In this document: positions 3,849 through 47,506 of the stretch, piece after piece
Layout of the letters: each line of letters opens with the position of its first letter
Numbering within the stretch: position 1 is the stretch's first letter
NCBI GenBank assembly: GCA_034004805.1
Contig: JAVEVZ010000001.1
Span: 1 to 49,021, forward strand
From: Spongiibacteraceae bacterium
GTDB taxonomy: Bacteria; Pseudomonadota; Gammaproteobacteria; Pseudomonadales; CAMLJR01
Length of the DNA: 49,021 bases
Reading direction: 5' to 3'
Notes under the pieces: generated by a model
Databases searched by the model: none
What the model was told of the DNA's origin: nothing
Seen by the model: only the letters and a program-made list of their open reading frames with translations
Made by a program: the position numbers and the translations under genes

Positions 3849-5249
<1,401 letters not shown>

Positions 5250-5253
<4 letters not shown>

Positions 5254-5681: not shown

Positions 5682-5696
5682 GGCTGTACAAACGCG

Positions 5697-6140: not shown

Positions 6141-6172
6141 CAGGGTTCACCATGGGTCATTGTCAGGAGTCA

Positions 6173-18663: not shown

Positions 18664-18909
18664 GAAAACCTCGGCAGAATTGGGCAGCGCCCAGTCTACG
18701 TGTTGCGCGGTGGCGTGAAACTCCGAAGATACCCCTAGCGCTGTAGGTGGTTTCCGTAGCTGCGGTTGGCAAGGGTGGTGCCGCGCCGCCATAATGCGGC
18801 GCCTCGGGACGGCCCGCGCGCCACGCCCCGACGGCTCCAGCTGGCGCGGCCGCCATCGGCTCCAGTGCGTTACCAACAGGTTCAACCCGCTTCAGTCACA
18901 GGATCATTC

Positions 18910-27817: not shown

Positions 27818-28828
27818 TTAGCCGGGTATCGGGGTCTTGGCCGGGGCCAGCGGCTCCTCGCGCACCAGGCGGGGCATCAGGTAGCCGGGCAGGCGTGCGC
27901 GAAGCTGTGCCATCAGCGCCACGGCGCGCTGTTCCGATACCTCGAAATGGGCCGCGCCACGCACGCGGTCGAGTAGATGAAGGTAGTAGGGAAGCACGCC
28001 GTGGGCAAACAGCGCCTCACTGAGCGTGATCAGGGTCTCGCTGTTGTCGTTGACCTCGGCCAGCAGCACCGCCTGGTTGAGCAGTGGCACGCCGGCATCC
28101 CGCAGCCGCCGGCAGGCCTCGCCGACCTGGGCGTCCAGTTCCCGGGGGTGGTTGATATGCAGCACCATGACCGGCTGCAGGCGGCTGCCGGTCAGCCAGG
28201 CCAGGCAGCTGTCGTCGATCCGGTCGGGGATGACAACCGGCAGCCGGGTGTGCACCCGCAGGCGCTGGACATGGGGGATGGCGGCCAGGGCCGTCACCAG
28301 CCACTCGAGCTGGCGGTCCGGGGCCGCGAGCGGATCGCCGCCGCTGAGTATCACCTCGCTGATACTCGCGTCCCCGGCGATGTACGCCAGCGCCCGCTGC
28401 CAGTCGCGCCGTCCGGGATTGTTGGCCTCGTAGGGAAAAGCGCGGCGAAAACAGTAGCGGCAGTTGATGGCGCAGGCGCCGCTGACAATCAGCAGCACCC
28501 GGCCGTGGTATTTGTGTATCAGTCCCGGCGCGGGGTTGGCGTCGGCTTCCGCCAGCGGGTCGTCGCTGTAGCCGTCCGGACTGGTCAGCTCCAGGCCCAG
28601 CGGGAGGACCTGGCGCAGCAGCGGGTCTGCCCAGTTGCCCGGCTCAATCCGCGACAGATAGGCCTCCGGCACCCGCAGCGCGAAGTCCCGGCTGGCGGCC
28701 AGGCTCGCGGGCAGTTCTGCCGGGTCCAGGCCCAGGCGCCGGAACAGCACGGCGGGCTCGGTAATGGCGTCGCGCAATTGCGCCTGCCAGGACTGCGCCT
28801 GCCCAAGCGGCAAACTAATCGGTATCAT
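27818..28828 (-). CDS. epmB: EF-P beta-lysylation protein EpmB (lysine 2,3-aminomutase-like radical SAM)
   Basis: CAINCRYCFRR radical-SAM cluster motif, SGGDPL. It is divergent from efp, as in E. coli. Confidence 0.92.
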   Translation of the reverse strand: MIPISLPLGQAQSWQAQLRDAITEPAVLFRRLGLDPAELPASLAASRDFALRVPEAYLSRIEPGNWADPLLRQVLPLGLELTSPDGYSDDPLAEADANPAPGLIHKYHGRVLLIVSGACAINCRYCFRRAFPYEANNPGRRDWQRALAYIAGDASISEVILSGGDPLAAPDRQLEWLVTALAAIPHVQRLRVHTRLPVVIPDRIDDSCLAWLTGSRLQPVMVLHINHPRELDAQVGEACRRLRDAGVPLLNQAVLLAEVNDNSETLITLSEALFAHGVLPYYLHLLDRVRGAAHFEVSEQRAVALMAQLRARLPGYLMPRLVREEPLAPAKTPIPG

Positions 28829-28863
28829 AGGCGGCTTTTCAGACCCCAGTCAGTGAGACAACC

Positions 28864-29433
28864 ATGGCGACGTATTCTACCAACGAATTCCGCTCCGGCC
28901 TGAAGGTGATGCTGGACGGCGATCCCTGCAACATCCTGGAGAACGAATTCGTCAAGCCCGGCAAGGGCCAGGCCTTCAACCGCGTGCGCCTGCGCAACCT
29001 CAAGACCGGCCGGGTGTGGGAGCGCACCTTCAAGTCGGGGGAGAGCCTGGAGGGCGCGGACGTCATGGACCGCGAAATGCAGTACCTGTACAACGACGGC
29101 GCCGACTTCCACTTTATGGAGCCGGAAAATTTCGAGCAGTACCAGGCCAGCGCGGAACTCGTCGGCGACGCGGCCAGCTGGCTGAAGGAGCAGGACAACT
29201 GCACCGTGACCCTCTACAACGGCGTGCCGCTGGCGGTGACCCCCGCCAACTTTGTGGAGCTGGAAATCGTTGAAACCGACCCCGGTATGCGCGGCGACAC
29301 CGCCCAGGGCGGCTCCAAGCCCGCCAAGCTGGTCACCGGCGCGGTGGTCAAGGTGCCGCTGTTTCTGTCGGAAGGCGAGGTGATCCGCGTCGATACCCGC
29401 ACCGGCGAATACGTCAGCCGCGCGCGGGACTGA
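28864..29433 (+). CDS. efp: elongation factor P
   Basis: [22 protein letters not shown] and the loop VKPGKGQAF carrying the modifiable Lys (Lys-type EF-P, consistent with EpmAB). Confidence 0.97.
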
Positions 29434-29435
29434 CC

Positions 29436-30386
29436 CTGGACTGGCGCCCCACTGCGGAGCTTGCGGTACTGCGCCGCCGCGCCGAGGCGCTGGCGGCAGT
29501 CCGCCGCTTCTTTGCCGAGCGCGATGTGCTCGAAGTCGAAACGCCCTGCCTGGCCGACTGCCCGGTCACCGACCCGAATATCGAGGCCTATGCCTGCGCG
29601 GACGGCTACCTGCAGACCTCCCCTGAATACGCCATGAAACGCCTGCTGGCCGCCGGCAGCGGGCCCATCTGGCAGCTCGCCCGGGTATTTCGCCAGGGCG
29701 AGCGCGGTGCGCGTCACAACCCCGAGTTCTCGCTGCTGGAGTGGTACCGGCCGGACTTTGCCTTGCAGCAGCTGATCGCCGAGGTCGCAGACCTGGTGCG
29801 CTATCTGCTGGGTTGCCTGCGCGGCGCGTCGCCGGCAGCGGCGCTGCCGTTGCAGGTGGTCAGCTACCGCGAGATTTTTGGCGACGCGCTGGGGCTTGAT
29901 CCGCATCGGGCCACGGCGGCCCGGCTCGAAGCCGTCGCGCGCAGTCATATCGACATCCAGATGCACAGCGACGACCCCGACGACTGGCGCGACCTGTTGA
30001 TGAGCCATGTGGTCGAGCCCGCGTTGCCCGTCGATGAACTGGTCGCCGTGTGCGACTACCCGGCCAGCCAGGCGGCGCTCGCGCAGGTGGTTCGGGACGC
30101 CACCGGGGCGGAGGTCGCGGCGCGCTTTGAGCTGTACTACCGGGGCATGGAGCTGGCCAATGGCTACCACGAGTGCCGCGATCCACAGGCCCTTCGGCGG
30201 CGTTTTGAGCGGGATCTCGGCAAGCGCGCGGCGCGCGGCCAGAGCCTGCCACCGATCGATGAACAACTGCTGGCCTCCACCCCGTTTATGCCCGACAGCT
30301 GCGGCGTGGCGCTGGGCTTCGACCGGCTGCTGATGCTGGTGCTGGACCTGCCTCGCATCGACGACGTGATTCCCTTTCCGCGCTGA
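29436..30386 (+). CDS. epmA: EF-P-lysine lysyltransferase EpmA (GenX/PoxA); start codon non-canonical or unresolved
   Basis: Class II aaRS-like core (LEVETP, LQTSPEYAMKRLLA, FRQGERGARHNPEFSLLEWY, GVALGFDRL). Conserved N-terminal residues WRPTAELAVLRRRAEALAAVRRFFAERD lie upstream of the first in-frame GTG (29526) and no ATG/GTG/TTG precedes them. The CTG at 29436 is my best guess for the start. Confidence 0.85.
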   Translation: MDWRPTAELAVLRRRAEALAAVRRFFAERDVLEVETPCLADCPVTDPNIEAYACADGYLQTSPEYAMKRLLAAGSGPIWQLARVFRQGERGARHNPEFSLLEWYRPDFALQQLIAEVADLVRYLLGCLRGASPAAALPLQVVSYREIFGDALGLDPHRATAARLEAVARSHIDIQMHSDDPDDWRDLLMSHVVEPALPVDELVAVCDYPASQAALAQVVRDATGAEVAARFELYYRGMELANGYHECRDPQALRRRFERDLGKRAARGQSLPPIDEQLLASTPFMPDSCGVALGFDRLLMLVLDLPRIDDVIPFPR

Positions 30387-30414: not shown

Positions 30415-30439
30415 GGAACCTTCCTCCACAGCCGCCGTA
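30415..30439 (+). promoter_or_regulatory. ECF-type promoter P1 (GGAAC-N16-CGTA)
   Basis: GGAAC CTTCCTCCACAGCCGC CGTA. The -10 element ends 52 nt before the ATG of the GSP26-like gene. Confidence 0.7.
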
Positions 30440-30491
30440 GGTCAAGCAGAGCCTTTATTGGCATGTATCACAAACGGTAGTGAGGTGAGTT

Positions 30492-30980
30492 ATGGCGCAC
30501 AAATCCGAAGACCAGGAAGTGTGGGACCTTATCAAGGACGCCCAGGTCGGGATGCTGATAACCCGCGACGGGCGCAGCCTGCGCGCGCGTCCCATGCAGC
30601 TGGTGCAGAAGAACTACGAGGGCAAGATCTGGTTTTTTACCCGGGTCGCCTCGGAAAAAGTGCTGGAGGCGCTGGGGGAAGACGTCGTGTGCCTGACTTT
30701 CTCTGAACCCAGGCACAATACCTATGTTTCCCTGTCCGGCGTTGCCCGCCTGTCCTATGACCGCAAACTGATGGACGGGCTGTGGAACTCCTTTACCAAT
30801 GCCTGGTTTCCCGAGGGAGTGGAGTCGCCCGATGTCGCCTTGCTGGAAATCGAGGTGTACCAGGGGGAGTACTGGAAACCGGACGAGAACAAAATTCTCC
30901 GCGCCTATGAGCTGGCCAAGGCCAACTACAGGCACCAGCTGCCCGACATAGGCAAGAATCAGAAATTCGATCGCCACTGA
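30492..30980 (+). CDS. pyridoxamine 5'-phosphate oxidase-fold general stress protein (GSP26-like)
   Basis: 162 aa. VWDLIKDAQVGMLITRDGRSLRARPM...GKIWFFT resembles the YdaG/GSP26 PNPOx-like family. Confidence 0.8.
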   Translation: MAHKSEDQEVWDLIKDAQVGMLITRDGRSLRARPMQLVQKNYEGKIWFFTRVASEKVLEALGEDVVCLTFSEPRHNTYVSLSGVARLSYDRKLMDGLWNSFTNAWFPEGVESPDVALLEIEVYQGEYWKPDENKILRAYELAKANYRHQLPDIGKNQKFDRH

Positions 30981-30986
30981 CCACCG

Positions 30987-31019
30987 CCGGCAGCGGCACG
31001 CACCGCTGCCGGTGCTTTT
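30987..31019 (+). terminator. rho-independent terminator
   Basis: CCGGCAGCGG-CACGCA-CCGCTGCCGG followed by TGCTTTT, 7 nt after the stop codon. Confidence 0.8.
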
Positions 31020-31130
31020 CTGCAACCTGTCAGTCCCACCGTTGCCGGTGCCGGTCGCCGGCCCGCGCCCGACTGTCGCGCCAATTGCTGCTAGACTTTC
31101 CGCCAGTTTATCGCGCACAGGCCGCTCACT

Positions 31131-31589
31131 ATGGACTGGTTGGACCAGCATATTCTGTATTGGCATTGGATCATTCTGGGTCTGGTGCTGTGCGCGGCCG
31201 AAATCTTCGTGCCGACATTTTTCATACTGTGGTTCGGCATCAGCGCGGTGGTGGTGGGACTGGTCACCTGGGCCGTGCCGCTGACCTTTACCTGGCAGCT
31301 GGCGGCCTGGATCAGCCTGACGATTGTTGATCTGTTGATCTGGCAGCGCTATGTCAGTCCGCGCATTCGCGACAAGACCCGCTCCGGCATGGCGCTGGAA
31401 GCCATGCTGGGCCAGGAGGCTACCGTGCTGGAGCACAGGCCTGAACAGCAGCGCGGCCGCCTGCGATTTGCGGCGCCTCTGCTGGGCAGCGACGAGTGGA
31501 CCTATATCTGCACCCAGGAAACCCGCGCCGGTGACCGGGTTCGCGTCACGGGTTTTTCCGGCAATACCCTGATTGTTGAAAAGCGCTGA
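31131..31589 (+). CDS. NfeD-family membrane protein
   Basis: 152 aa with 3 TM helices and a C-terminal OB-like soluble domain (GRLRFAAPLLGSDEWTYICTQETRAGDRVRVTGFSGNTLIV). It is paired with a downstream SPFH gene. Confidence 0.8.
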   Translation: MDWLDQHILYWHWIILGLVLCAAEIFVPTFFILWFGISAVVVGLVTWAVPLTFTWQLAAWISLTIVDLLIWQRYVSPRIRDKTRSGMALEAMLGQEATVLEHRPEQQRGRLRFAAPLLGSDEWTYICTQETRAGDRVRVTGFSGNTLIVEKR

Positions 31590-31622
31590 GTCACCGGGCG
31601 CACACACCGAGGAAGACTGTCA

Positions 31623-32468
31623 ATGGAAGGCCTGGCCATCGTCGCAACCTTCGCGGTACTGGTTGCCGTTACCATCGGGATGGGGGTAAGAATTGTTCCC
31701 CAGGGTTCAAAACATATTGTGCAGCGCCTGGGTAAATACCACGGAACGCTCAATCCCGGCCTCAATATCATCATTCCCTATGTCGACACGGTGCCCTACC
31801 AGGTCACCACCAAGGACATCGTGCTGGATATCCCCTCACAGGACGTGATTACCGAGGACAACGCGGTGATCATTGCCAACGCGGTGGCCTACATCAATAT
31901 TGTCTCGCCGGAAAAAGCCGTCTACGGCGTCGAGGACTACATCGTCGCAATCCGCAACCTGGTGCAGACCGCGCTGCGCTCCATCATCGGCGAGATGAGT
32001 CTCGACGCGGCCCTGTCCTCCCGCGATCAGATCAAGGCCAAGCTCAAGGCCGCGATCTCCGACGATATTTCCGACTGGGGCATTACCCTCAAGACCGTGG
32101 AAATTCAGGACATCAACCCGTCGCCCACCATGCAGCGCGCCATGGAAGAGCAGGCCGCCGCCGAGCGCTTGCGCCGGGCGGCCGTGACCAAGGCCGAGGG
32201 CGACAAGCAGGCCGCCATCCTAGAGGCCGAGGGCCGGCTCGAGGCATCAAAGCGGGATGCCCAGGCCCAGGTCGTGCTGGCGCGCGCCAGCCGCGAAGCG
32301 ATACAGCAGATATCCGAGGGCATCCGCGGCGAAGAACTGCCCGCGATGTTCCTGTTGGGCGAGCGCTATGTGGATGCCATGAAGGATGTGGCCCTGTCGG
32401 CCAACACCAAGACGCTGATATTCCCCGCCGACCTGCCCGAGGCGGTCAAGGGCATACTCAGCAAATAG
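31623..32468 (+). CDS. SPFH/band-7 (stomatin/QmcA-like) protein
   Basis: N-terminal TM helix, VPQGSKHIVQRLGKYHGTLNPGLNIIIPYVD, then an Ala/Glu-rich coiled coil. Confidence 0.9.
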   Translation: MEGLAIVATFAVLVAVTIGMGVRIVPQGSKHIVQRLGKYHGTLNPGLNIIIPYVDTVPYQVTTKDIVLDIPSQDVITEDNAVIIANAVAYINIVSPEKAVYGVEDYIVAIRNLVQTALRSIIGEMSLDAALSSRDQIKAKLKAAISDDISDWGITLKTVEIQDINPSPTMQRAMEEQAAAERLRRAAVTKAEGDKQAAILEAEGRLEASKRDAQAQVVLARASREAIQQISEGIRGEELPAMFLLGERYVDAMKDVALSANTKTLIFPADLPEAVKGILSK

Positions 32469-32534
32469 CCAATCGCGACGATAGGACGATAGACAGGAGC
32501 CGCCAGACAGTGCGGGAGAATGCAGGGGCAGCGC

Positions 32535-32903
32535 TCAGTATCGCCCGGCGCGCTTGCGGCCGGTCTGCGTGCTCCGGCGCGGCCCGAGTAACCGGGACCG
32601 GCTGGCCTTGTCGCTCCCCCTGCCGTTGTCGCAGCTTTTGCCATCGCAGCCCTCGACGGCGGCTGAAGTGTGTCCCGGCGCTGGCGCCGCGAAGGTTTTC
32701 CGCTTCCGGCCCCCGCCTTGCGGTTCTCCGCCCGGCGCGCCAAGTCGCGTCAATAATTCCCGCTCGCGATACAGTTGACGGTAGCGGCGCATGGCCGCCG
32801 GGTTGTGCGCCAGAAACAGCGCCACCCTCAGCCACTCGTCATCCGCAAGTTCGTCATCGACCAGTGCCTGTATTGCTAAATCGTCCACTTTGAGCGAACA
32901 CAT
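32535..32903 (-). CDS. possible small anti-sigma-factor-like protein
   Basis: From the ATG at 32903, MCSLKVDDLAIQALVDDELADDEWLRVALFLAHNPAAMRRYRQLYRERELL resembles the N-terminal sigma-binding helix pattern of anti-sigma factors (xxLxAYVDGELxxxE...P). The C-terminal half is basic, low-complexity and has no TM helix. Weak call. Confidence 0.35.
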   Translation of the reverse strand: MCSLKVDDLAIQALVDDELADDEWLRVALFLAHNPAAMRRYRQLYRERELLTRLGAPGGEPQGGGRKRKTFAAPAPGHTSAAVEGCDGKSCDNGRGSDKASRSRLLGPRRSTQTGRKRAGRY

Positions 32904-33044
32904 AGGCAGTTCCACAACCCGCGATTTATTACTGTCAGCTATCAGAATCTGTGACCGCGTGGTCAGTTCGGCGCTAACAAAGGCGTTGGTATAACAATGC
33001 AGCACGGTCGCGTTTTGTTCCCTGATTGCTGCCTTGCGGTAGCG

Positions 33045-33069
33045 GGAACCGCAACGCCGCCACTGCGTT
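33045..33069 (+). promoter_or_regulatory. ECF-type promoter P2 (GGAAC-N16-CGTT)
   Basis: GGAAC CGCAACGCCGCCACTG CGTT. The -10 element ends 36 nt before the DUF1328 ATG. Confidence 0.75.
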
Positions 33070-33105
33070 AGTTCAGCCGACACGGTAAATTAAAGGAGAA
33101 TCGCG

Positions 33106-33282
33106 ATGTTATATTGGGCGCTGGTCTTTCTGGTCGTGGCCTTGATTGCAGGGGTGCTGGGTTTCGGTGGCATAGCGGCGGCTTCCGCGGGCATAGCAAA
33201 GATACTGTTCTTTCTGTTCTTTGTTCTGTTTGTTATTGCCGCGATTATGCATGCACTGCGCGGTAAATCCCCTCCCATGTGA
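33106..33282 (+). CDS. DUF1328 (YtjA/UPF0391) small membrane protein; absent from the ORF track because under 60 aa
   Basis: [58 protein letters not shown] (58 aa) matches the DUF1328 signature. AAAGGAGA sits 7 nt upstream. Confidence 0.85.
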
Positions 33283-33458
33283 CCGCCGCCGGTTCGTGGT
33301 CGTCGGTCGCCGGCTGCCCTGGCGCTCGCTTTTGCAGGCGTCGGGGTATTACAGTTGCGCTGGTGACTGGATGTGTGACCAGGAAGGCATTCGCGGCCGA
33401 CGCGACCGACCCGGTCTGCCAGCCTGGCATGCCGCCAGTCTGGTCTTAAGGGATGACC

Positions 33459-35690
33459 ATGAACGGCGTATTTATCCGCAACTACGTATTCTTCGGCGTT
33501 ATGCTGCTGTGCTGTGTTGGCACGCTGGGCTATTTTCTGGTGTCCGGCAACAATGAACTGCAGCGCAACGCCGCGCTTGTAAACCGTACCCATGCAACGA
33601 TTGCCGAGGTCGAAAAGGTCGCGGGCCTGGTCGAAGGCATGGTGGCGGCGGAGCGCGGTTACATCATCTCCGCGCAGGAGAGTTCCCTCAAAGTCTATGA
33701 GGCCAAGAAGGCCAGCGTCTCCGAGAGCATCGCGGTGCTCAGCGAGCTGACCGCGGACAGTCAGGCGCAGCGCAGCCGACTGGACGAACTGAGAAATTAT
33801 TTCGTGCGCCTGAGCAGCGAGCTCGAAGCCCGCAGCGCCGCGGTGCAGCCCGGCCTTCCCTACCTGCCGCTGGACGGCGTGGAGACCATCAACGGTATCC
33901 GCGACAACATTACCCGCATCTCCGGCGCCATGCTGGGCGAAGCCCGTGAGTCACTGCGCACCCGCGCCGTGGCACTGGAATGGCAGCGGGCCCGCTACCT
34001 CGATGCGCTGCTGATCGGCATTATTGCAGGTACGGCGCTACTGCTGATCCTGAATGGCTTCCTGCTCAGAGCGCAGCAGAAGCGCAGCTCTGTCGAAGCC
34101 AGCCTGAAGGATGCCGAAACGCGGTTCGCGCTGGCGATTGAAGGCACTCAGGACGGCATCTTCGACTGGGATATCACTACCAACCAGGTGTTTTATTCGC
34201 GTCGTTTTTACCAGATGCTGGGGTATGAGAAGGACGCGTTTTACGGAACTATCAAGGACCTCACCGACGCGGTACACCCCGACGACGTAGAGCGGGTGTG
34301 GTCCACGATAGAGCGGTATCTGGAAGGGGAGACCGCTGAATACGCCCAGGATTTCCGCATGCGACACAGTTCGGGGCGCTGGGTGTGGGTGCAGTCGCGC
34401 GGCAAGGCGATTTTTGATCACAACGGCAGGCCTGTGCGCATGGTGGGCGCCCACAGCGACATCTCTGAAACGATCCGTACCCAGGAGCGCCTGCTGGGAG
34501 AGAAGCAGCGCGCCGAGGAGTACAGTCAGGCAAAAACCGAGTTCCTTGCGCACATGAGCCACGAAATACGTACCCCGTTGACGGCCATCAGCGGAATCGC
34601 CGAGATACTCAACAAAAAGATATCGGAGATTGACCCGCGCCATCATCGCCTGCTGTCCACTCTGCTGACCAGTTCCACGTCCCTTAAGGACCTGGTCAAC
34701 GATGTGCTGGACTTCTCCAAGATTGAAAGTGGTGATATCGAACTGAGTGAAGAGATGTTCCGGCTGGATATCATGCTGGAGGAAGTGGTCAGCATGATGG
34801 CGCTCAAGGCCAACGAGAAAGGGATTAATTTTCTCTGTGACTTCAAGGTCGCCGCAGGCAGGGAACTGCTGGGCGATCGAGGCCGTATCCGCCAGATCGT
34901 GGTCAATCTGATCGGCAACGCCATCAAGTTTACCGACAGCGGCGGCGTCTCGGTTCACGTCGATATTGAAGAGCGCGACCAGCAGACGTTTTTGCGCGCG
35001 GACGTAACAGACACCGGTATTGGAATTGCCGCTGAAGATTTCGATCTGGTTTTTGAGCGTTTCAAGCAGGCCGACTCATCCGTGTCGCGCCGCTATGGCG
35101 GCACAGGCCTGGGGTTGTCGATCTCACGCAACCTGGCGCGCATTATGGGCGGGGACATCTTCGTCAGCAGCACCCTGGGGGTCGGATCCACATTCTCGCT
35201 GGTGTTGCCCGCGCATCTCATGCCGGTCGAGGATGCGCGCGATACCTCTGATCAGGTGGTGGAAGCACTGAGTGGCCAGATCCGGCAGACCCTGTCCAGA
35301 TGGACCCCCGAGCGCGGCCGTATTCTGGTGGTGGATGATTATGAGGGCAATATTGTGGTGCTCGGCTGTCTGCTGGATGAGCTGGGGGCCGATTACGATG
35401 TTGCGCGCTCCGGCGTTGAAGCGCTGAAAAAATGGCAGGAGGCGCCATACCGCCTGATCCTGATGGATATCCAGATGCCCGAGATGGATGGCTACACCAC
35501 CGTGGCGGAGATCCGTCGCGAGGAGGCGATGAGCGGGCGTCCGCGTACGGCGATTGTAGGCATGACGGCCCATGCTCTGGCCGGTGACGGTGAGCGCTGT
35601 CTGGAGGTGGGCATGGATGACTACCTGCCGAAGCCATTGGTTGAGGCGGACTTTAAGCGGGTGCTGTTGCGGCTGCTGGTGGAAAATTAG
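33459..35690 (+). CDS. hybrid sensor histidine kinase (CHASE3-PAS-HisKA-HATPase-REC)
   Basis: TM helix plus a CHASE3-like periplasmic/coiled region, a PAS domain ([19 protein letters not shown]), H-box [11 protein letters not shown]-boxes ([15 protein letters not shown]) and a C-terminal receiver ([13 protein letters not shown]). The ATG at 33459 has better SD spacing than 33453. Confidence 0.9.
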
Positions 35691-35855
35691 GTCAGCTCTG
35701 GAGACCTGCTGCGCTGGATATCTGAGGCGTAGCGGTGCGCGGAATGTGCATTGATACCCTGATAAATCCCGCCTCCTGCGCGCCGCGTCGCCTGTCTTCC
35801 CCCGCTATTTTTTTCAGAGGTTCCCAGGGTCCTGAAAAGGCGGCTGGATATTTCT

Positions 35856-35880
35856 GGAACTGTTAGAGACCTGTTCCGTC
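35856..35880 (+). promoter_or_regulatory. ECF-type promoter P3 (GGAAC-N16-CGTC)
   Basis: GGAAC TGTTAGAGACCTGTTC CGTC. The -10 element ends 35 nt before the ATG at 35916. Confidence 0.65.
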
Positions 35881-35915
35881 AGTGGCATTGAAGCAGATGG
35901 GACTTGGAGTAGATC

Positions 35916-36107
35916 ATGAGCAATAGAGCACTGCTGACGATGCTCGCGATTCTTGTGGTAGGTACCCTGACAGTCATTGGCGTTCTGGTCCGCAGTGATC
36001 GGGCATGGGAGCTGGCCGATAGCGAGAGCCGGGAGGTGGCGGCAGAAGCGCTAACCACCGCGCAAGCGCCGCTTGCCGCGCCCGGCGAGTCTGCCGCCGG
36101 CCATTAA
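35916..36107 (+). CDS. small single-pass membrane protein (63 aa)
   Basis: N-terminal TM helix LLTMLAILVVGTLTVIGVLV, GGAG SD and an ECF-type promoter upstream. No family recognised. Confidence 0.5.
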   Translation: MSNRALLTMLAILVVGTLTVIGVLVRSDRAWELADSESREVAAEALTTAQAPLAAPGESAAGH

Positions 36108-36159
36108 GGCCGTGAAAAAAACCAGGCCGTGAAAAAAACCGAGCCGTGGAAAAACCACG
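36108..36159. repeat. three tandem 17-18 bp repeats (GCCGTGAAAAAAACC-type)
   Basis: GGCCGTGAAAAAAACCA / GGCCGTGAAAAAAACCGA / GCCGTGGAAAAACCACG, starting right after the stop codon of the small ORF, between convergent genes. The third unit can fold as CGTGG-AAAAA-CCACG. Confidence 0.8.
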
Positions 36160-36237
36160 CGGATGGCGCGACCACTTCAACCTCTCATTGCCTTCCGCAT
36201 TGCTGTGCGCTTCTCTGCGGCCCATGCTGTTGCAGCG

Positions 36238-36804
36238 CTATGCGCGGGCATTGGTCATGCCTGCCGCACTGCGATTGGCGGCCCGTTGATGCAGGCCGGC
36301 GAGCGTTGCCGTGGAGATCGATACCTGCGCTGTGTTCATGGCTGCATGCAGACTCTCCCTGGCTCTGGACAAACGCGAGCGCACCGTGCCGACAGGAATC
36401 GCCAGCAGCTCAGAGACCTCCGCGTAGCGCATGCCGTTGATGCCGATCAGAGTCAGGATTTCGCGGTGGTCGGCACTCAGTCTCTGCATGGCGGCCAGTG
36501 CGTTAGCCAGCTCCGCGCTGGGCTCTTGATCCGGTTCAGAGATCTCCCGCGCGATATACCAATCCGGGTCGTACTGGGTCTCATAGCGCGCCTTCTTGCG
36601 GTAGTTAGAGACGAACTGGTTGAACATGATCTTGGCCGTCCAGCTGAAGAGGCTGGAGTCCGCCTGGAACTGCTGGCGTTTCTCTATGGCCTTGAGCAGC
36701 GTGTTCTGCAGCAGGTCGTCAGCGTCACTGGCATTCCGCGTCAGCTTGTGCGCGAAGCGCTGCAGCTTCTTGCTTTCATCAATCAGATCGCTATCCGTAA
36801 ACAT
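36238..36804 (-). CDS. ECF (group 4 sigma-70) RNA polymerase sigma factor
   Basis: Region 2 (DADDLLQNTLLKAIEKRQQF, SLFSWTAKIMFNQFVSNYRK) and region 4 (LSADHREILTLIGINGMRYAEVSELLAIPVGTVRSRLSRARESL). The ATG at 36804 is preceded by GGAGAAG. The alternative upstream ATG at 36831 lacks an SD. Confidence 0.9.
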   Translation of the reverse strand: MFTDSDLIDESKKLQRFAHKLTRNASDADDLLQNTLLKAIEKRQQFQADSSLFSWTAKIMFNQFVSNYRKKARYETQYDPDWYIAREISEPDQEPSAELANALAAMQRLSADHREILTLIGINGMRYAEVSELLAIPVGTVRSRLSRARESLHAAMNTAQVSISTATLAGLHQRAANRSAAGMTNARA

Positions 36805-36872
36805 GGCGTCTTCTCCGTTGTCGTTTGGCATCAGACTACGGAGGAGCCGTAACAGGGGCTTGTCGCTACTGT

Positions 36873-36896
36873 AACGGTATTGAAAATCTTTGTTTC
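36873..36896 (-). promoter_or_regulatory. weak candidate autoregulatory ECF-type promoter of the sigma gene
   Basis: The minus strand reads GAAAC-N15-CGTT, with one -35 mismatch and a spacer one nt short relative to P1-P4. It lies about 70 nt upstream of the ATG at 36804. Confidence 0.3.
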
Positions 36897-36966
36897 AAAT
36901 TTGTAACAGCCGCTATATATTCTGTCCGCTCAAGGGGTGGGAATTGATCATCGTGGAGCGGGCACC

Positions 36967-37713
36967 GTGCCGAAAGGACTGATACTGAGCATCGAAGATG
37001 ACGAGGGGCTTCAAGTCGTTCTCCAGCACTCCCTGGAAGAAGAAGGGTACCGCGTGCTGTGCGCCGGTACCGTGGAGGCCGCCCTTGAAAACGTCAATCG
37101 CGCAAACCTCAGCGCCATACTTCTGGATCTGACGCTGCCCGACGGCGAGGGGTTGGACCTTATTCCGATGATCCGGGCCAGGACCAGGGCCGCGATTATT
37201 GTGGTGTCCGGCAAGGACAGCGCCACCGAGAAGGTGGTGTGTCTGGAAATGGGCGCGGACGACTATATGACCAAGCCGTTCGAGATGCGCGAACTGCTGG
37301 CGCGCATCAAGGCCGTTCTGCGGCGCGCGGGCCCGTCCGCGATGCCCGAAATGGACCCGGCCAACGATCTCAGATCCGCGGTGCGATTGGCCTTTGCCGG
37401 CGGCTGGAGCCTGGATCGGTCACAGTTCCAGTTGTTCGACCGGGACGGGCGCTCCGCTGGCCTGACTACCGGGGAGTTTCGGCTGCTCGATTCGCTGGTG
37501 ACCGCACCCAATCGCGCCTTGAGTCGCGAGTACCTTCACGAGGTCACCCGCGACGGCCAGTACGATATTTACGACCGCGCCATCGATATTCAAATTGCCC
37601 GATTGCGCCGCAAACTGGGCGATGACACCAAAACTCCCAGCCTGATCAAAACTGTAAGAGGCGTTGGCTACATGTTCTGCGCCGAAGTCAGTATTGTCGA
37701 CACTGTCGAATAA
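36967..37713 (+). CDS. OmpR/PhoB-family response regulator
   Basis: REC domain (ILSIEDDEGLQ, ILLDLTLPDGEG, KPFEMRELLARIKAVLRR) plus a winged-helix domain (LTTGEFRLLDSLV, IDIQIARLRRKL, IKTVRGVGYMF). The GTG at 36967 has GGAG 8 nt upstream. The track start is at 36937. Confidence 0.9.
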   Translation: MPKGLILSIEDDEGLQVVLQHSLEEEGYRVLCAGTVEAALENVNRANLSAILLDLTLPDGEGLDLIPMIRARTRAAIIVVSGKDSATEKVVCLEMGADDYMTKPFEMRELLARIKAVLRRAGPSAMPEMDPANDLRSAVRLAFAGGWSLDRSQFQLFDRDGRSAGLTTGEFRLLDSLVTAPNRALSREYLHEVTRDGQYDIYDRAIDIQIARLRRKLGDDTKTPSLIKTVRGVGYMFCAEVSIVDTVE

Positions 37714-38002
37714 GCGCACCTGCTTGAGCGCCCGGCACCTGCGACGCGCTCGGATCACGCAGGGAGCGCGAAGCCTGCAGGTTCCCACATCGTATGTCGG
37801 GCTCGCGGCGCGGGTTCAATGCGCCCTGCGCGCAGCCACTCCGATCGACCGTTTGAAGCAGGCCGCGCCCGGTCCGGGCGAGGCTTAGCGTTCCTCTCAA
37901 GCAGCACTTCGGCTGCAGTTTTTCTATTGCGGGATCCGCTTTGTAATCGTTGATTTCATCTTCTTATCACGGTGTCGGACAGGCGCTGAACGGTGCGCGG
38001 CT

Positions 38003-38027
38003 GGAACTGATTCACAGCCATTGCGTA
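38003..38027 (+). promoter_or_regulatory. ECF-type promoter P4 (GGAAC-N16-CGTA)
   Basis: GGAAC TGATTCACAGCCATTG CGTA. The -10 element ends 42 nt before the ATG of the BON-domain gene. Confidence 0.7.
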
Positions 38028-38069
38028 GGTGGATCGTCTTGAGTTGATAAGCCAAATGAGGAACCATCC

Positions 38070-38669
38070 ATGAACACCATCAAGCGTTCATTCAGTCATA
38101 TTGCTATTGCCATTGCGGCCACGGGTGCTTTGGCGCTGCCCGCTGTGGTCACCTACGCGGATTCCAACGCAAGTGATTCCACCAGCATGGAGCAAAGCGT
38201 CAAGCAGGGCTGGAAGGAAGGTGTGATCGAAGGCGCGTTTCTGTTCAACACCAATCTCAACCCGCTGGATATCGACGTCGAAGTAAAAGGCTCCACCGCA
38301 ATTCTGACCGGCTATGTCGACACCGATGCGGCGAAGGCGCTGGCGGCGGAAGTGGCTCTCAGTGTCGATGGCATCACTGAGGTCGACAATCAGATCAAGG
38401 TCGACAAGGCGAAATCTGCCAGGGATGACGACGGCATGGATGATCTGAAATCCGATATTTCCGACGCTGCCATTACCACCAAGGTGAAATCCAAGCTGCT
38501 GGCCAACACACAGGTATCCGGGCTGTCAGTCAATGTCGAAACCAAGGATCGCGTGGTAACCCTTAAGGGCGAGGTCGATACCGATACCGAGCGAGATCTG
38601 GTGTATTACATCACGCGCAACACCGATGGCGTGCGTGGCATCAACAACGAGCTTTCAGTCAAGAAGTAA
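38070..38669 (+). CDS. periplasmic BON-domain protein (OsmY-like)
   Basis: Signal peptide, then two BON repeats (IDVEVKGSTAILTGYVDTDAAKALAAEVALSVDGITEVDNQIKV and VNVETKDRVVTLKGEVDTDTERDLVYYITRNTDGVRGINNELSV). Confidence 0.88.
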   Translation: MNTIKRSFSHIAIAIAATGALALPAVVTYADSNASDSTSMEQSVKQGWKEGVIEGAFLFNTNLNPLDIDVEVKGSTAILTGYVDTDAAKALAAEVALSVDGITEVDNQIKVDKAKSARDDDGMDDLKSDISDAAITTKVKSKLLANTQVSGLSVNVETKDRVVTLKGEVDTDTERDLVYYITRNTDGVRGINNELSVKK

Positions 38670-38765
38670 ATGACTGGCGGGTCGGTGCAGGCGGGGCGGG
38701 CGCTTCTGGCTTGCCTGATAAACGTCGCGGTATCCGGCCCGGAAAAGATCGTCAGGAGCAACGTT

Positions 38766-39347
38766 ATGTTTAACAAATACTCTATTTTTGCTGCCGCCAT
38801 CTGCGGTTTCAGCGCGCTGAGCATAACTCCTGCGCAAGCGGATTCCGAGCCGCGCGATGGTTATCGCAGCGGTTTTTACATAGGCGCCAACTACGGCGGA
38901 TTCAAATCACGTGGCGACGAGTTCGATGACGACAATGATTACTACGAAGCGGTGGTCGGTGGAAATATCTCGCCGTACTTTGCCATCGAAGGCAGTTATA
39001 CCGACTTTGGCGACTTTGGCGGCAAACTCGCCTCGGCCGACCTGGACGGCTATGGCATAGCTGTTATTGGCCGTTTGCCGATCACGGATGTGTTTTCGGT
39101 GTATGCAAAAGCCGGCCAGTTCTTCTGGGAGTCCGACGTGGATGTCCTGGGTGCTCGCACTGACGTGGAGGGCGACGAGCCGTTCTTTGCAGCAGGTCTG
39201 GATTTTCTGCTGACTGACCATTTCAGCGTGGCGCTGGAGTACAGTCGGTATAAGTTTGATCTCAGTGATTCCAGCCTGCCAGACGCGCTGGATGACTACG
39301 AGACCGACATCGACACCGTCAAGCTTGGCGCCAAACTGTTGTTTTGA
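38766..39347 (+). CDS. outer-membrane beta-barrel protein (OmpA-N/OmpW-like porin family)
   Basis: Signal peptide MFNKYSIFAAAICGFSALSITPAQA, alternating aromatic/Gly beta-strand pattern and a terminal ...VKLGAKLLF. The ATG at 38766 is preferred over the track start at 38670. Confidence 0.8.
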   Translation: MFNKYSIFAAAICGFSALSITPAQADSEPRDGYRSGFYIGANYGGFKSRGDEFDDDNDYYEAVVGGNISPYFAIEGSYTDFGDFGGKLASADLDGYGIAVIGRLPITDVFSVYAKAGQFFWESDVDVLGARTDVEGDEPFFAAGLDFLLTDHFSVALEYSRYKFDLSDSSLPDALDDYETDIDTVKLGAKLLF

Positions 39348-39410
39348 GCGTCATCCATTGCTTGGTACACGTGACACAGCAACCGATGCAGGCAACACGA
39401 GGATACGATC

Positions 39411-39614
39411 ATGAATAAACACGAATTCAAAGGTAACTGGCAACAGCTCAAGGGCAAAGTCCAGGAGCAGTGGGGCAAACTGACCGGTGATGACCTCACG
39501 CGCATAGATGGTCAGTACGAGCAGCTGGTCGGGATGCTTCAGGAGCGCTATGGCAAGAGCAAGGAAGCGGCGGAAAAAGAGGTCAATCAATACCTGAACC
39601 AGACCCGCCACTGA
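39411..39614 (+). CDS. CsbD-family stress protein
   Basis: MNKHEFKGNWQQLKGKVQEQWGKLTGDDLTRIDGQYEQLVGMLQERYGKSKEAAEKEV is a canonical CsbD/YjbJ signature. Confidence 0.93.
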   Translation: MNKHEFKGNWQQLKGKVQEQWGKLTGDDLTRIDGQYEQLVGMLQERYGKSKEAAEKEVNQYLNQTRH

Positions 39615-40524: not shown

Positions 40525-42849
40525 ATGATGCGAGGCTTGATCTGGGCACTGCTGGTGACGGTGCTGGTAGGTTGTGCGGCAATCGCGGGACGCCAGCTGG
40601 ATGCGCAGTTTGGCGCCGAAGACGTCCGGCTGCGCGCCACCAGCGCTGACTATCGCACGCATATCGCGCCCATCCTCGAGAGCCGTTGTGTCGTGTGCCA
40701 TGGCTGCTATGACGCGCCCTGCCAGCTCAAGCTGAGCAGCTTCGAAGGGCTGGAGCGGGGCGGACACAAGACCAAGGTCTACGATGGCACCCGCTTGCTG
40801 ACCGCCTCGCTGACCCGGCTGTACGTCGATGAGACCCGGGTTGAAGGCTGGCGTCAGCGGGGCTTCTTTCCGGTGTTGAACGAGCGCAGCGCAGCGGCCG
40901 ATCTGCATGGCAGTGTGCTGGCGCGCATGCTTGCGCTCAAACAGGCGCACCCGCTGCCCGACCAGGCGGTGTTGCCCGACAGCTTCGACTTTTCTCTGGA
41001 TCGCAACCAGCAATGCCCGCGCGTCGAAGAGTTCGACAGCTACGCCCGCGACTACCCCCTGTGGGGTATGCCCTACGGTCTGCCGGCGCTGAGCGATGCG
41101 GAGCACCGCCAGCTGGTGGACTGGTTGGCGAAAGGCGCGCCAGGGCCCAGGCCACTGGCGCTGTCGCCGGCAGAGCGCGCGGAACTGGCGCGCTGGGAGG
41201 AGTTCCTCAACCAGCCAGACAACAAGGCTCGGCTGATGAGCCGCTATATCTACGAACACCTGTTTCTGGGCGCCCTGTATTTCGCCAATCAGCGGGACGG
41301 CCGCTTTTATGAACTGGTGCGCTCGCGCACGCCGCCCGGTGAACCCATAGACCTGATTGCGAGCCGGCGTCCCTATGACGACCCCGGTGTCGAGGCGTTC
41401 TACTACCGCTTGCGGCCACGGCTCGAGAGCGTACTGGTCAAAACCCATATGCCCTATCTGCTGGATGACGCCCGCATGGCGCGCTGGCGGGAGTGGTTTC
41501 TGGAGGCGGATTACCAGATCACTGCACTGCCGGGTTATACGCCCCAGCTCGCCGCCAATCCCTTTGCGACCTTTGCGGAGCTGCCGGTGCGCAGTCGCTA
41601 CCGGTATATGCTCGACGAAGCGCAGTACACCATCATGGGGTTTATCAAGGGGCCCGTGTGTCGCGGCCAGGTTGCGCTCAATGTCATCAACGACCATTTC
41701 TGGGTCGTGTTCGTCGATCCCGACCGAGTGGATCAGGAGTATGACAAGGCCTTTCTGGCAGAGGCCAGCAAAGACCTGGGCCTGCCCGTGACGCGCCAGA
41801 GCAACGTCATGGCGCTGGCCGACTGGTTGGCCTACTCGCGGGAGGAAAAGGCCTGGCAAATGCGCAAGGGAGAGCATTTGCGGCAGCGCTTCGCCGATTC
41901 CCGCGGGCCTGCGCTCGATATCGTCTGGAGCGGCGATGGCGTGAACACCAATGCAGCGCTGACAGTGTTCCGCCACTTTGACAGTGCTACGGTGGTCAGG
42001 GGCCTGGTGGGAGACACGCCACAGACGACCTGGCTGGTGAGTTACTCCCTGCTGGAACGCATCCATTACCTGCTGGTGGCCGGGTTTGATGTCTACGGCA
42101 ATGTCGGGCATCAGCTGGTAACGAGACTCTATATGGACTTCCTGCGCATGGAGGGCGAACAGAATTTTCTGGCGCTGCTGCCGGATAGCGCCCGCGAAGA
42201 GGCGCTCGCGCACTGGTATCGGGAGGCGCCTGAGGAAGCGCAGCAGTTTGTCGGTGGAAAATGGTTTGGCGAGTTGATGCCGTCGCAGGTCGTCTACCAC
42301 AGTGAACAACCGCTGCCCGAGCTTCGTGGCCTGCTTAAACAGCGCCTGGACGGCGTGTTGGACAGGCGCCATAGCCTGCGTGCCAACCTCGCACCGGCTG
42401 CGGTGAGTGCCGCTCTGCGGGAACTGGAGTTGCTGCCCTGGCAGGCTGTTGCGTTGCTGCCACAGACCAGTGTGCTGCTGGTCGATGAGGGTTCCCGGCG
42501 CCATGTGTACACACTGGTGCACAACAATGCACACCTGAATGTCTCGTCGCTGTTCGACGAAAGCAAGCGACGGGTGCCGAAGGAAGATACCGTCACCGTG
42601 GTCAGTGGCGTGCTGGGCGCCTACCCCAACCAGTTGCTGAGAGTTAACGCCGGGCAGATGCAGGCGTTTTCGCAGACGGTGGCGGCGATGACCACAGAGG
42701 CTGACTACGCGGCGATGCTGAGCCGTTACGGTGTGCGGCGCAGTGATCCCGACTTCTGGGCGCACAGCGATGAACTGCACCGGCTGTACCGCGCACAAGG
42801 CGGCGTGGAGGCCGGCTGGTTGGATTTCAATCGCCTGGACAACCGCTGA
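40525..42849 (+). CDS. cti: fatty acid cis/trans isomerase (periplasmic c-type haem protein)
   Basis: 774 aa with a lipoprotein-like signal (LLVTVLVGCAA) and a CVVCH haem-binding motif within ILESRCVVCHGCYDAPCQLKLSSFEGLERG, as in Pseudomonas/Vibrio Cti. Length matches. Confidence 0.88.
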   Translation: MMRGLIWALLVTVLVGCAAIAGRQLDAQFGAEDVRLRATSADYRTHIAPILESRCVVCHGCYDAPCQLKLSSFEGLERGGHKTKVYDGTRLLTASLTRLYVDETRVEGWRQRGFFPVLNERSAAADLHGSVLARMLALKQAHPLPDQAVLPDSFDFSLDRNQQCPRVEEFDSYARDYPLWGMPYGLPALSDAEHRQLVDWLAKGAPGPRPLALSPAERAELARWEEFLNQPDNKARLMSRYIYEHLFLGALYFANQRDGRFYELVRSRTPPGEPIDLIASRRPYDDPGVEAFYYRLRPRLESVLVKTHMPYLLDDARMARWREWFLEADYQITALPGYTPQLAANPFATFAELPVRSRYRYMLDEAQYTIMGFIKGPVCRGQVALNVINDHFWVVFVDPDRVDQEYDKAFLAEASKDLGLPVTRQSNVMALADWLAYSREEKAWQMRKGEHLRQRFADSRGPALDIVWSGDGVNTNAALTVFRHFDSATVVRGLVGDTPQTTWLVSYSLLERIHYLLVAGFDVYGNVGHQLVTRLYMDFLRMEGEQNFLALLPDSAREEALAHWYREAPEEAQQFVGGKWFGELMPSQVVYHSEQPLPELRGLLKQRLDGVLDRRHSLRANLAPAAVSAALRELELLPWQAVALLPQTSVLLVDEGSRRHVYTLVHNNAHLNVSSLFDESKRRVPKEDTVTVVSGVLGAYPNQLLRVNAGQMQAFSQTVAAMTTEADYAAMLSRYGVRRSDPDFWAHSDELHRLYRAQGGVEAGWLDFNRLDNR

Positions 42850-43145: not shown

Positions 43146-43613
43146 ATGAAAATTGATATCGGTATTTCGGAACAGGACCGCTCGGCGATCGCTGATGGGA
43201 TGGGGCGTCTGCTCGCGGACAGCTATACGCTTTATCTCAAAACGCATAATTTTCATTGGAATGTCACGGGTCCGATGTTTCAAACCCTGCACCTGATGTT
43301 TGAGACCCAGTACACCGAGCTGGCCCAGGCCGTGGATGAGATCGCCGAGCGCATACGCGCACTGGGCTTTCCGGCGCCAGGTACCTACAGCGATTATGCG
43401 AAGCTGACGTCGATCAAGGAAACTGCGGGGGTTCCCGAAGCGAAGGAAATGATCAGGCTACTGGTCGAAGGACATGAAGCGGTAGTAAGAACCGCGCGCT
43501 CGCTTTACCCGGCACTGGAAAAGGCCAGTGATGAGGCAACCAGCGATCTGGTCACCCAGCGCATCCAGTTGCACGAAAAGACGGCGTGGATGCTGCGCAG
43601 CCTGCTGGCCTGA
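43146..43613 (+). CDS. dps: Dps DNA-protection/ferritin-like protein
   Basis: [37 protein letters not shown] and [13 protein letters not shown] are Dps ferroxidase-site motifs. AAGGAGAA SD. Confidence 0.95.
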
Positions 43614-45029: not shown

Positions 45030-45153
45030 CGTGTAGTCCTCTCGATGCAGACACTGCGCCGCAGTGCGTGAGAAAATCTTGGCGTATCGGGGCGCGGCTG
45101 CCATCACTTGAATAGGGTAAGCGTTGGTCAAACCGCGCGATATTTGATCTGGA

Positions 45154-46062: not shown

Positions 46063-46087
46063 GCTTGTGCTCCTCGCCGGTCCGGTG

Positions 46088-47197: not shown

Positions 47198-47506
47198 TGT
47201 CGATCTCCTGCGCGGTGTACCGCTGGCGGTTAACGTGGGTCCAGTATCGGAGCACGAACCCTGGTTGGTTATCGTCTGAACAGATGAGGTGGCGCGGTAT
47301 CGGGACGGAACTTGATACAGGTCAAACAATGGGCGCGGAAACCGTCTCAGCCAAGGTAATGGAGCGAGTCTGAGGGCGGGTGCGCCCGCTGGCAGGACGA
47401 CATGCCCTGCCGGCCGGCTCGGTGATCTCAGTCAGGGGGCAACAATACGCCGAGCCGGACACGGCGGTCTTGCGTCAAGCCGGCTTTGCGGTATGGACTG
47501 CAGGCC

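Follow-up and report, generated by a model that had tools for sequence, protein, structure and literature searches.

A 49,021-bp stretch of DNA from a Spongiibacteraceae bacterium (GenBank assembly GCA_034004805.1, contig JAVEVZ010000001.1; the whole stretch is referred to below as the window) probably carries a stress cassette organised around an extracytoplasmic function (ECF) sigma factor whose lineage is sister to EcfG. On this reading, which is held with moderate confidence and is drawn from sequence comparison, a two-component system would switch the sigma gene on, the sigma factor would drive five promoters (P1–P5), and an anti-sigma-like protein produced from one of them would provide feedback. 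The EcfG general stress response is regarded as an innovation of the Alphaproteobacteria that goes with the PhyR-NepR partner switch; in the cassette, the EcfG promoter grammar and small stress proteins of the same kind are kept, and the switch would consist of a conventional two-component system and a mini anti-sigma factor. The complete cassette has apparently been transferred to another class, its host here being a marine gammaproteobacterium.

The promoters are recognised by an exact motif, GGAAC-N16-CGT, which was searched on both strands of the window and found seven times against 1.24 expected, a count reached in none of the 100 shuffles by which the expectation was checked. Four copies lie on the plus strand in intergenic DNA, starting at 30415 (P1), 33045 (P2), 35856 (P3) and 38003 (P4), exactly where the first-pass annotation, which was made from the sequence alone, had reported them. 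Their CGT elements precede the ATG codons at 30492, 33106, 35916 and 38070 by 53, 37, 36 and 43 nucleotides (nt), respectively; the positioning claimed earlier is thus retained, with the range shifted by one nucleotide from 35–52 to 36–53 nt. The other three exact copies (20870 and 26285 on the minus strand, 44102 on the plus strand) fall within coding DNA. Given about 5.5 kb of intergenic DNA in the window, about 0.11 correctly oriented intergenic copies would be expected, which corresponds to a Poisson probability of about 5e-6 for four or more, and the earlier judgement that a chance origin is very unlikely is upheld. The pattern was chosen post hoc from the sequence, and it equals the published EcfG-type consensus. 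When one mismatch is tolerated, the signal is gone (46 observed against 39 expected), and the exact core therefore matters; spacings of N15, N17 and N18 yield extra matches in coding regions only.

Comparison with relatives adds to this evidence. A position weight matrix built from relatives' sites only, with the window excluded, and scored on both strands of the 49-kb window ranks P4 first, P1 second, P2 third and P3 sixth. In the relatives, the sites read GGAAC-N16/17-(C/T)GTTGG(T) and are located 55–75 nt upstream of small stress genes, namely CsbD operons and genes for DUF883, entericidin, PRC-barrel, DUF2383, OmpA-like and DUF1328 proteins. Across 27 loci of the window-sigma clade (299 kb), GGAAC-N16-YGT occurs 69 times against 16.7 expected, and the extended form GGAAC-N16-NGTTGG occurs 33 times against 0.9; the corresponding figures are 64 against 15.6 and 4 against 0.5 for 25 alphaproteobacterial ECF loci outside this clade, among them those of canonical EcfG (280 kb), and 15 against 18.1 and 0 against 1.1 for 31 loci of unrelated ECF sigma factors (330 kb). 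The motif is enriched around the clade of the window sigma factor and not around unrelated ECFs, which agrees with the earlier proposal of ECF-type promoters read by the adjacent sigma factor; P1–P5 are accordingly treated below as predicted promoters of ECF type, for which this sigma factor is most likely the reader.

The conserved cassette and the proposed control of its sigma gene

The sigma gene (36238..36804, minus strand) encodes a protein of 188 amino acids (aa) that contains regions 2 and 4 only, as ECF (group 4) sigma factors of about 160–200 aa do, with Pfam matches to Sigma70_r2 (E 4e-10), Sigma70_r4_2 (E 2e-14) and PhyR_sigma2 and a TIGR02937 score above the cut-off; its start codon was placed at the present position because M1-F2 is invariant among homologues. 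A sigma protein with 100% identity is encoded on 18 contigs, which come from several metagenomes and include GCA_035514755.1 (labelled Spongiibacteraceae); these same-species contigs, at 99.94–99.98% identity to the window, are therefore uninformative on the conservation of sites. Among the matches listed, the next-best homologues are 50–69% identical, and their named hosts are Micavibrio, Sneathiella, unclassified Alphaproteobacteria and a few Pseudobdellovibrionaceae. The cassette-linked sigma factors form their own clade in a neighbour-joining tree of 84 sigma factors, calculated without bootstrap support; its sister is a large clade of alphaproteobacterial proteins, in which the NepR-neighboured EcfGs and also sigma factors with zf-HC2-type partners are placed.

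In about 18 loci, the same five genes are found with their order and orientation kept: an anti-sigma-like gene, DUF1328, a CHASE3-PAS hybrid kinase, the ECF sigma factor and an OmpR-type regulator. The hybrid sensor kinase of the window (33453..35690, plus strand; Pfam CHASE3, PAS_3, HisKA, HATPase and REC) is convergent with the sigma gene, as are its orthologues of 43–53% identity, and the DUF1328 copies of the relatives' cassettes, which are 62–71% identical, are located upstream of the kinase. The response regulator (36967..37713, plus strand; 248 aa; a REC domain and a winged helix, Pfam Response_reg and Trans_reg_C) has orthologues of 52–60% identity that are always divergent from the sigma gene; against the NCBIfam OmpR model, it scores 177 bits, which is below the cut-off. 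The same protein was considered as a PhyR and rejected, its domains being REC and Trans_reg_C of the OmpR type. Among the matches listed, the cassette occurs mainly in Alphaproteobacteria, Micavibrio and Sneathiella among them, and further copies in other Gammaproteobacteria are possible; literature searches for the five-gene arrangement found no description, and it is apparently undescribed so far.

Between the sigma gene and the regulator gene lies a block of about 75 bp that aligns ungapped across 19 loci whose guanine-cytosine (GC) content ranges from 37 to 64%, with the consensus TTGTTACAAAAATGATACAAACTTTTTCAAAACTGTTACAnnnCnGACAAACnnnnGTTACA followed about 9 nt further on by TAnnnT. In the window, this block holds six direct repeats at 10–11 bp spacing (36848..36908, minus strand; TGTTACA, TGAAACA, TTTTCA, GTTACA, GACAAG and TGTTAC) and, about 9 nt past the last of them, a candidate sigma-70-type −10 box of the sigma gene, TAGTCT (36833..36838, minus strand), of the conserved form TAnnnT; in the 19-locus alignment, the first T of this box is kept in at least 90% and the A and the final T are invariant. 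The core of two repeats, GTTACA-N5-GWWACA, is present at a single place in the window when both strands are read. In their spacing, the repeats are arranged like OmpR/PhoB-family sites, with the last of them standing where a −35 element would be, in the style of a pho box. From this layout, we infer that the array is the binding site of the OmpR-type regulator and that the regulator activates transcription of the sigma gene. The regulator probably activates its own transcription as well. A candidate −10 box of its gene, TATATT (36916..36921, plus strand), belongs to a sigma-70 scan match TTCAAA-16-TATATT, and most of the 19 loci have a TATATA box at the corresponding place, which fits a sigma-70-type promoter. 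No promoter of its own ECF type was found upstream of the sigma gene. A GAAAC-N15-CGTT sequence at 36896-36874 was considered as an autoregulatory promoter and rejected, the same positions being repeat units (GATAC, TATTAC) in relatives.

The fifth conserved gene of the cassette (32535..32903, minus strand) encodes a small anti-sigma-like protein of 122 aa, zf-HC2/ASD-like and without cysteine, whose family was found by local phmmer and hmmsearch runs across the relatives' loci. Homologues of about 60 aa, to which the window protein is related with E values of 2e-7 to 5e-6, are encoded beside DUF1328 and divergent from it in nine of these loci (L001, L003, L006, L007, L008, L011, L014, L016 and L083), and in L081 the homologue is placed one gene further out, beyond an OmpA gene. 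The family consensus reads ..DxDIQALVDnELd.eE...V...I..NP.A..RY..L..Qk.LL..WW. Of 11 family members, 5 match Pfam zf-HC2 (best E 6e-6), a domain with which anti-sigma factors begin, and one gives a weak RseA_N match; the H-x3-C-x2-C zinc motif is absent from the family alignment, which has no conserved Cys or His, and a profile search against solved structures returned noise and nothing significant. Wherever it is found, the gene lies in or beside the cassette, as a separate unit about 3–4 kb from the sigma gene and with an ECF-type promoter of its own. In the window, this predicted promoter is P5 (32994..33021, minus strand; GGAAC-N17-CATTGT), which stands back to back with P2 and was overlooked in the first-pass annotation because it contains no CGT. 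The divergent −35 pair GTTCC..GGAAC between DUF1328 and the anti-sigma-like gene is shared by eight relatives and the window; on the anti-sigma side, the spacing is 16–17 nt (mostly N17), and the −10 elements are weaker (CATTGG, CGTTAG, AGTTGG and similar). Two other open reading frames (ORFs) were considered as anti-sigma genes and rejected, that is, a minus-strand ORF of 83 aa (35974-36225) whose translation is arginine-rich nonsense, and a 63-aa ORF downstream of P3, which lacks both a cytoplasmic domain and homologues.

The C-terminus of the sigma factor (encoded at 36238-36330) belongs to a variable tail, about 25 aa long, which sigma factors of the clade carry (loci L001–L028, L081 and L083). 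Tails ending in -AA are found in 16 of 27 clade loci, whereas two other ECF groups had them in 2 of 23 and 0 of 12 cases, and this frequency suggests that the tail may act as a ClpXP-type degron and that the clade may be subject to ClpXP turnover, as sigma-AntA is; the window sigma factor itself ends in -NARA and not in -AA.

Taken together, these elements could be assembled into the following circuit. The membrane hybrid kinase, through its CHASE3-PAS sensor part, would sense an envelope or osmotic-type signal and control the OmpR-family regulator, which, once phosphorylated, would bind the direct-repeat array and turn on transcription of the sigma gene. The sigma factor, which would not be autoregulated, would then take RNA polymerase to promoters of the GGAAC-N16/17-(C/T)GT type, namely P1 for the PNPOx/GSP26-like gene, P2 for DUF1328 with or without read-through into the kinase gene, P3 for the 63-aa protein, P4 for the BON-OMP-CsbD genes and P5 for the anti-sigma-like gene. 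The small cytoplasmic protein made from P5 would bind the sigma factor and thereby form a negative feedback loop. The regulatory picture drawn earlier had included the sigma gene and had missed the OmpR-type regulator with its repeat array, the anti-sigma-like gene with P5, and the lack of autoregulation.

Transcription units and neighbouring genes

The gene identities that had been read from the translations (PNPOx-like, DUF1328, CHASE3 kinase, ECF sigma, BON, OMP, CsbD, Dps and Cti) are all confirmed. P1 (30415..30441, plus strand; GGAAC-N16-CGTAGG, an exact match) is the predicted ECF-type promoter of the PNPOx-like gene, which encodes a general stress protein 26-like product (30492..30980, plus strand; Pfam Pyrid_ox_like, E 1e-39). 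A terminator scan places a terminator with a 12-bp stem at 30985-31014, directly 3' of this gene; the P1 unit is therefore monocistronic and does not include the NfeD-SPFH (Band 7) pair at 31131-32468, which separates it from the anti-sigma-like gene. The window scan found no ECF-type site for NfeD/SPFH, save a weak intragenic match at 30784. Similarly, the matrix scan of the window found no site upstream of Dps (43146-43613) or of Cti (40525-42849). Membership of Dps, Cti and NfeD/SPFH in the regulon is consequently not supported by promoter evidence, the first two having no site upstream and the last lying behind a strong terminator.

P2 (33045..33071, plus strand; GGAAC-N16-CGTTAG, an exact match) is the predicted promoter of DUF1328, a small YtjA-like membrane protein (33106..33282, plus strand; Pfam DUF1328, E 8e-15), and relatives have a promoter upstream of DUF1328 at the equivalent position. 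A weak terminator (33308-33324) is located between DUF1328 and the kinase gene, and clear terminators are present at the equivalent place in relatives. Of the two targets earlier assigned to P2, DUF1328 thus stands by virtue of its conserved position, whereas the kinase gene is probably at most a read-through target.

P3 (35856..35882, plus strand; GGAAC-N16-CGTCAG, an exact match) is predicted to drive a membrane-anchored ORF of 63 aa (35916..36107, plus strand) whose translation begins with an N-terminal hydrophobic segment. Gene calling recovers this ORF in every same-species contig, and it has neither a Pfam match nor a homologue in the relatives' loci, which makes it species-specific. Between this ORF and the convergent sigma gene lies a 17-bp tandem repeat, AGGCCGTGAAAAAAACC, in 2.8 copies (36107-36154), and a terminator-like hairpin is located on the minus strand at 36159-36145. 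A transcript from P3 would enter the sigma gene antisense unless it were stopped in the tandem-repeat region.

P4 (38003..38029, plus strand; GGAAC-N16-CGTAGG, an exact match) is located downstream of the terminator with which the regulator gene closes (37901-37916). It is the predicted promoter of three plus-strand genes, encoding a BON/OsmY-like protein (38070-38669; Pfam BON), an outer-membrane protein (OMP) beta-barrel (38670-39347; Pfam OMP_b-brl) and CsbD (39411-39614; Pfam CsbD); the three genes abut with no terminator predicted among them and probably form one operon (38070..39614).

Elsewhere in the window, the ParC-like gene (18766-21159) holds an antisense perfect family-consensus site, GGAAC-N16-CGTTGGTG (20866-20893, minus strand), which could be a chance match or an antisense promoter. 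No RNA family was found in a comparison of the window with Rfam.

Origin of the island and weighing of rival explanations

Upstream of P1 lie EpmB, EF-P and EpmA (27818-30386), and the EF-P protein is 83–87% identical to proteins named Spongiibacteraceae, Litorivivens, Aurantivibrio, Haliea and Cellvibrionaceae. A Spongiibacteraceae metagenome-assembled genome and Litorivivens lipolytica share with the window the gene order ParC, 400-aa protein, SerB-like, GGDEF/EAL, FimW, EpmB, EF-P and EpmA. Judged from the EF-P identity, the EpmA/EpmB cluster and this shared upstream synteny, the host backbone is gammaproteobacterial, of the Cellvibrionales, as had been supposed. Synteny with Litorivivens (L093) and with the Spongiibacteraceae genome stops exactly at the epmA stop codon; relatives continue after epmA with psd, a rhodanese gene and rsgA, none of which is present in the window, so that a synteny break is placed where P1 begins. 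Across 33–40 kb, the GC content drops from 0.65–0.68 to 0.56–0.60, and both of the two Cellvibrionales relatives checked lack the island at this locus. The longest of the same-species contigs crosses the epmA junction; the junction is therefore present in independent assemblies, and the assembly of the window is considered sound. The cassette is probably a lineage-specific, accessory low-GC island of alphaproteobacterial type that was acquired horizontally. The earlier view, in which the general stress response is wired in an unusual way, accordingly holds for the clustered ECF regulon, whereas a re-wiring of the host's own response was overstated, the regulon residing on an accessory low-GC island with alphaproteobacterial homologues; nothing points to a replacement of RpoS by the cassette.

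Further genes of the surrounding DNA are mentioned for orientation. On the left, a PAS-GGDEF-EAL protein (23906-25951) adjoins a 580-aa protein (25978-27720) without a Pfam match, the positional counterpart of which is annotated FimW in relatives. At 43812-47329, rightward of the island, the window encodes HsaA-like and HsaC-like proteins of steroid-ring degradation and a Rieske-type oxygenase.

Three other explanations of the promoters and their control have to be weighed together with several points that count against a sigma-driven, two-component-switched cassette. Chance matches or functionless leftovers would be a very improbable account of the four sites. Three more exact matches do occur in coding DNA, the motif was selected after inspection of the sequence, and the perfect family-consensus site in a housekeeping gene (20893, minus strand) is antisense; against this, seven copies were observed for 1.24 expected, all four intergenic copies are correctly oriented (P ~5e-6), the matrix obtained independently from relatives recovers the window sites, and the DUF1328 site is conserved in position. 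The sites could also be genuine ECF-type promoters that are read by another sigma factor elsewhere in the genome (EcfG-like, SigH/SigE-like or another reader of GGAAC/GTT), while the local sigma factor has other targets. This would be an improbable arrangement, given that the motif and its clade-specific GTTGG extension co-occur with the cassette in genomes of 37 to 64% GC, that the motif occupies fixed positions in the cassette, at the divergently oriented promoters that separate DUF1328 from the anti-sigma-like gene, and that the two Cellvibrionales relatives are without the island at this locus. It draws on the fact that GGAAC with a CGT or GTT −10 element is common to several ECF groups, on the second solved-structure match of the window sigma factor, which is SigH of M. 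tuberculosis, and on the same core motif at other alphaproteobacterial ECF loci, canonical EcfG included. Since many ECF groups share AAC/CGT-type promoters, another ECF sigma factor encoded elsewhere could read P1–P5. It also counts against the sigma-driven cassette that the −10 elements of the window (CGTAGG, CGTTAG and CGTCAG) differ from the family consensus (C/T)GTTGG and that P3 and P5 score weakly in the matrix scan (4.8 for P5).

A third explanation accepts the local sigma factor as the reader of the promoters and places its control mainly after translation, in the anti-sigma-like protein and possibly in proteolysis of the C-terminal tail, with the two-component system as a co-regulated neighbour or a target. 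The conserved anti-sigma-like gene, the -AA tails of 16 of 27 clade loci, which resemble the ClpXP degron of sigma-AntA (PMC8999054), and the possible read-through from P2 into the kinase gene speak for it; it is nevertheless rather unlikely, as the sigma promoter is precisely where the conserved repeats and the invariant −10 box are located, the sigma and regulator genes are divergent throughout, a soluble 60-aa anti-sigma factor has no apparent release mechanism, and the window sigma factor ends in -ARA and not in -AA. Two features of the window itself count against the two-component switch and the feedback loop: the hybrid kinase has a receiver and no Hpt domain, with no Hpt gene in the cassette, and the 122-aa anti-sigma-like copy, itself without a Pfam match, ends in a long tail of low complexity and does not have the WW motif conserved in the family. 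With these points taken into account, a cassette switched by its two-component system, read by its own sigma factor and damped by the P5 product remains the probable reading.

A broader proposal is offered tentatively, at somewhat less than even confidence. The cassette-linked sigma factors would constitute an undescribed ECF group, sister to EcfG, with a portable, general-stress-like regulon under three controls, namely the two-component system acting on sigma transcription through the pho-box-like repeat array, a zinc-free mini anti-sigma factor of 60 aa expressed from a sigma-dependent divergent promoter, and a C-terminal -AA degron on the sigma factor; the group would be mobile between classes and would be the counterpart of PhyR-NepR-EcfG in Micavibrionales, Sneathiellales and their relatives. 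If the cassette works as proposed, it would show that a stress regulon can be retained while its control is re-wired, supply a compact, self-contained set of sigma factor, anti-sigma factor and promoters, with five natural promoters of graded strength, and give an entry to the functions of DUF1328, CsbD and BON proteins and to the signals of CHASE3 kinases.

Comparison with known systems

Two-component transcriptional control of an ECF sigma factor is known from SigE-CseBC (PMC8999054), and two-component-linked groups comprise ECF15, 32, 39, 234 and 246, none of which has been described with the architecture of the present cassette (PMC7826278). The cassette resembles SigE-CseABC of Streptomyces coelicolor (ECF39), HrpL/ECF32 and ECF234 in its adjacent two-component system, whose OmpR-family regulator would drive sigma transcription, and in a sigma gene without a promoter of its own type; the ECF39-like conservation of an adjacent histidine kinase and DNA-binding regulator extends over about 18 loci. 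It differs from these systems in the sigma lineage, the taxa, the sensor domain (a CHASE3-PAS hybrid) and the regulon, and, unlike ECF39 subgroups 1–3 (PMC7826278), it includes a conserved zf-HC2-like anti-sigma-like gene. ECF246 combines an anti-sigma factor with a two-component system, and it has Leptospira members and a link to antibiotic resistance (PMC12655853); identity with the window sigma factor is therefore unlikely, and ECF246, as described, is probably a different group.

In sigma-AntA of Streptomyces albus, a C-terminal Ala-Ala pair serves as the ClpXP degron (PMC8999054). Most members of the window-sigma clade similarly end in -AA after a variable tail, whereas the group is unrelated to sigma-AntA and the window copy ends in -ARA. 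With regard to cargo, the window genes belong to the same protein families as the RpoS-dependent stationary-phase and osmotic genes of gammaproteobacteria. The RpoS regulon of E. coli holds the osmY, yjbJ/csbD-like, ytjA/DUF1328 and dps families; the window promoters, in contrast, are predicted to be of ECF type and not of the sigma-70/sigma-S type, and the Dps gene of the window is without an ECF-type site.

The closest resemblance is to EcfG/NepR/PhyR (ECF15). Among solved structures, the window sigma factor best matches 5uxx_A, a Bartonella quintana sigma factor (E 7e-22, about 35% identity), from an entry that we take to be the EcfG-NepR complex, and next SigH of M. tuberculosis (E 2e-20); it is 36–39% identical to 5uxx_A and to the NepR-neighboured EcfGs of L027, L029 and L030. 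In the 49,021-bp window, neither a NepR motif nor a NepR homologue was found by a test that detects NepR-like ORFs in L027, L029 and L030, and a tblastn search with the bona fide PhyR of L030, which detects PhyR in L030 itself, found nothing there. The Sneathiellaceae genome L030 has a canonical phyR-ecfG-nepR locus (4955-6719), and Sneathiella loci L008, L013 and L016 have the cassette; both systems therefore exist in one family and possibly in one genome.

The EcfG motif has been given as GGAAC-N17-20-GTT, and the targets of EcfG in Sphingomonas melonis include genes for GSP26, PRC-barrel and OMP proteins (PMC6599016). The cassette shares with the EcfG system a promoter consensus of GGAAC-N16/17-(C)GTT, represented in the window by GGAAC-N16-CGT(A/T/C) sites that the sigma factor would recognise, a cargo of the same kind (CsbD, DUF1328, GSP26/PNPOx-like, PRC-barrel, OMPs and BON) and, among the matches listed, alphaproteobacterial closest relatives of its sigma factor. 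Unlike the EcfG system, it has as its putative regulators a DNA-binding protein of the OmpR type, a hybrid kinase with CHASE3 and HisKA (not HWE/HisKA_2) and a mini anti-sigma factor that resembles zf-HC2, its sigma factor falls in a separate clade with no adjacent NepR or PhyR, and its present host is a gammaproteobacterium. With promoter and cargo shared and the features of EcfG-NepR-PhyR membership absent, the cassette is therefore best described as EcfG-like at the level of promoter and cargo only.

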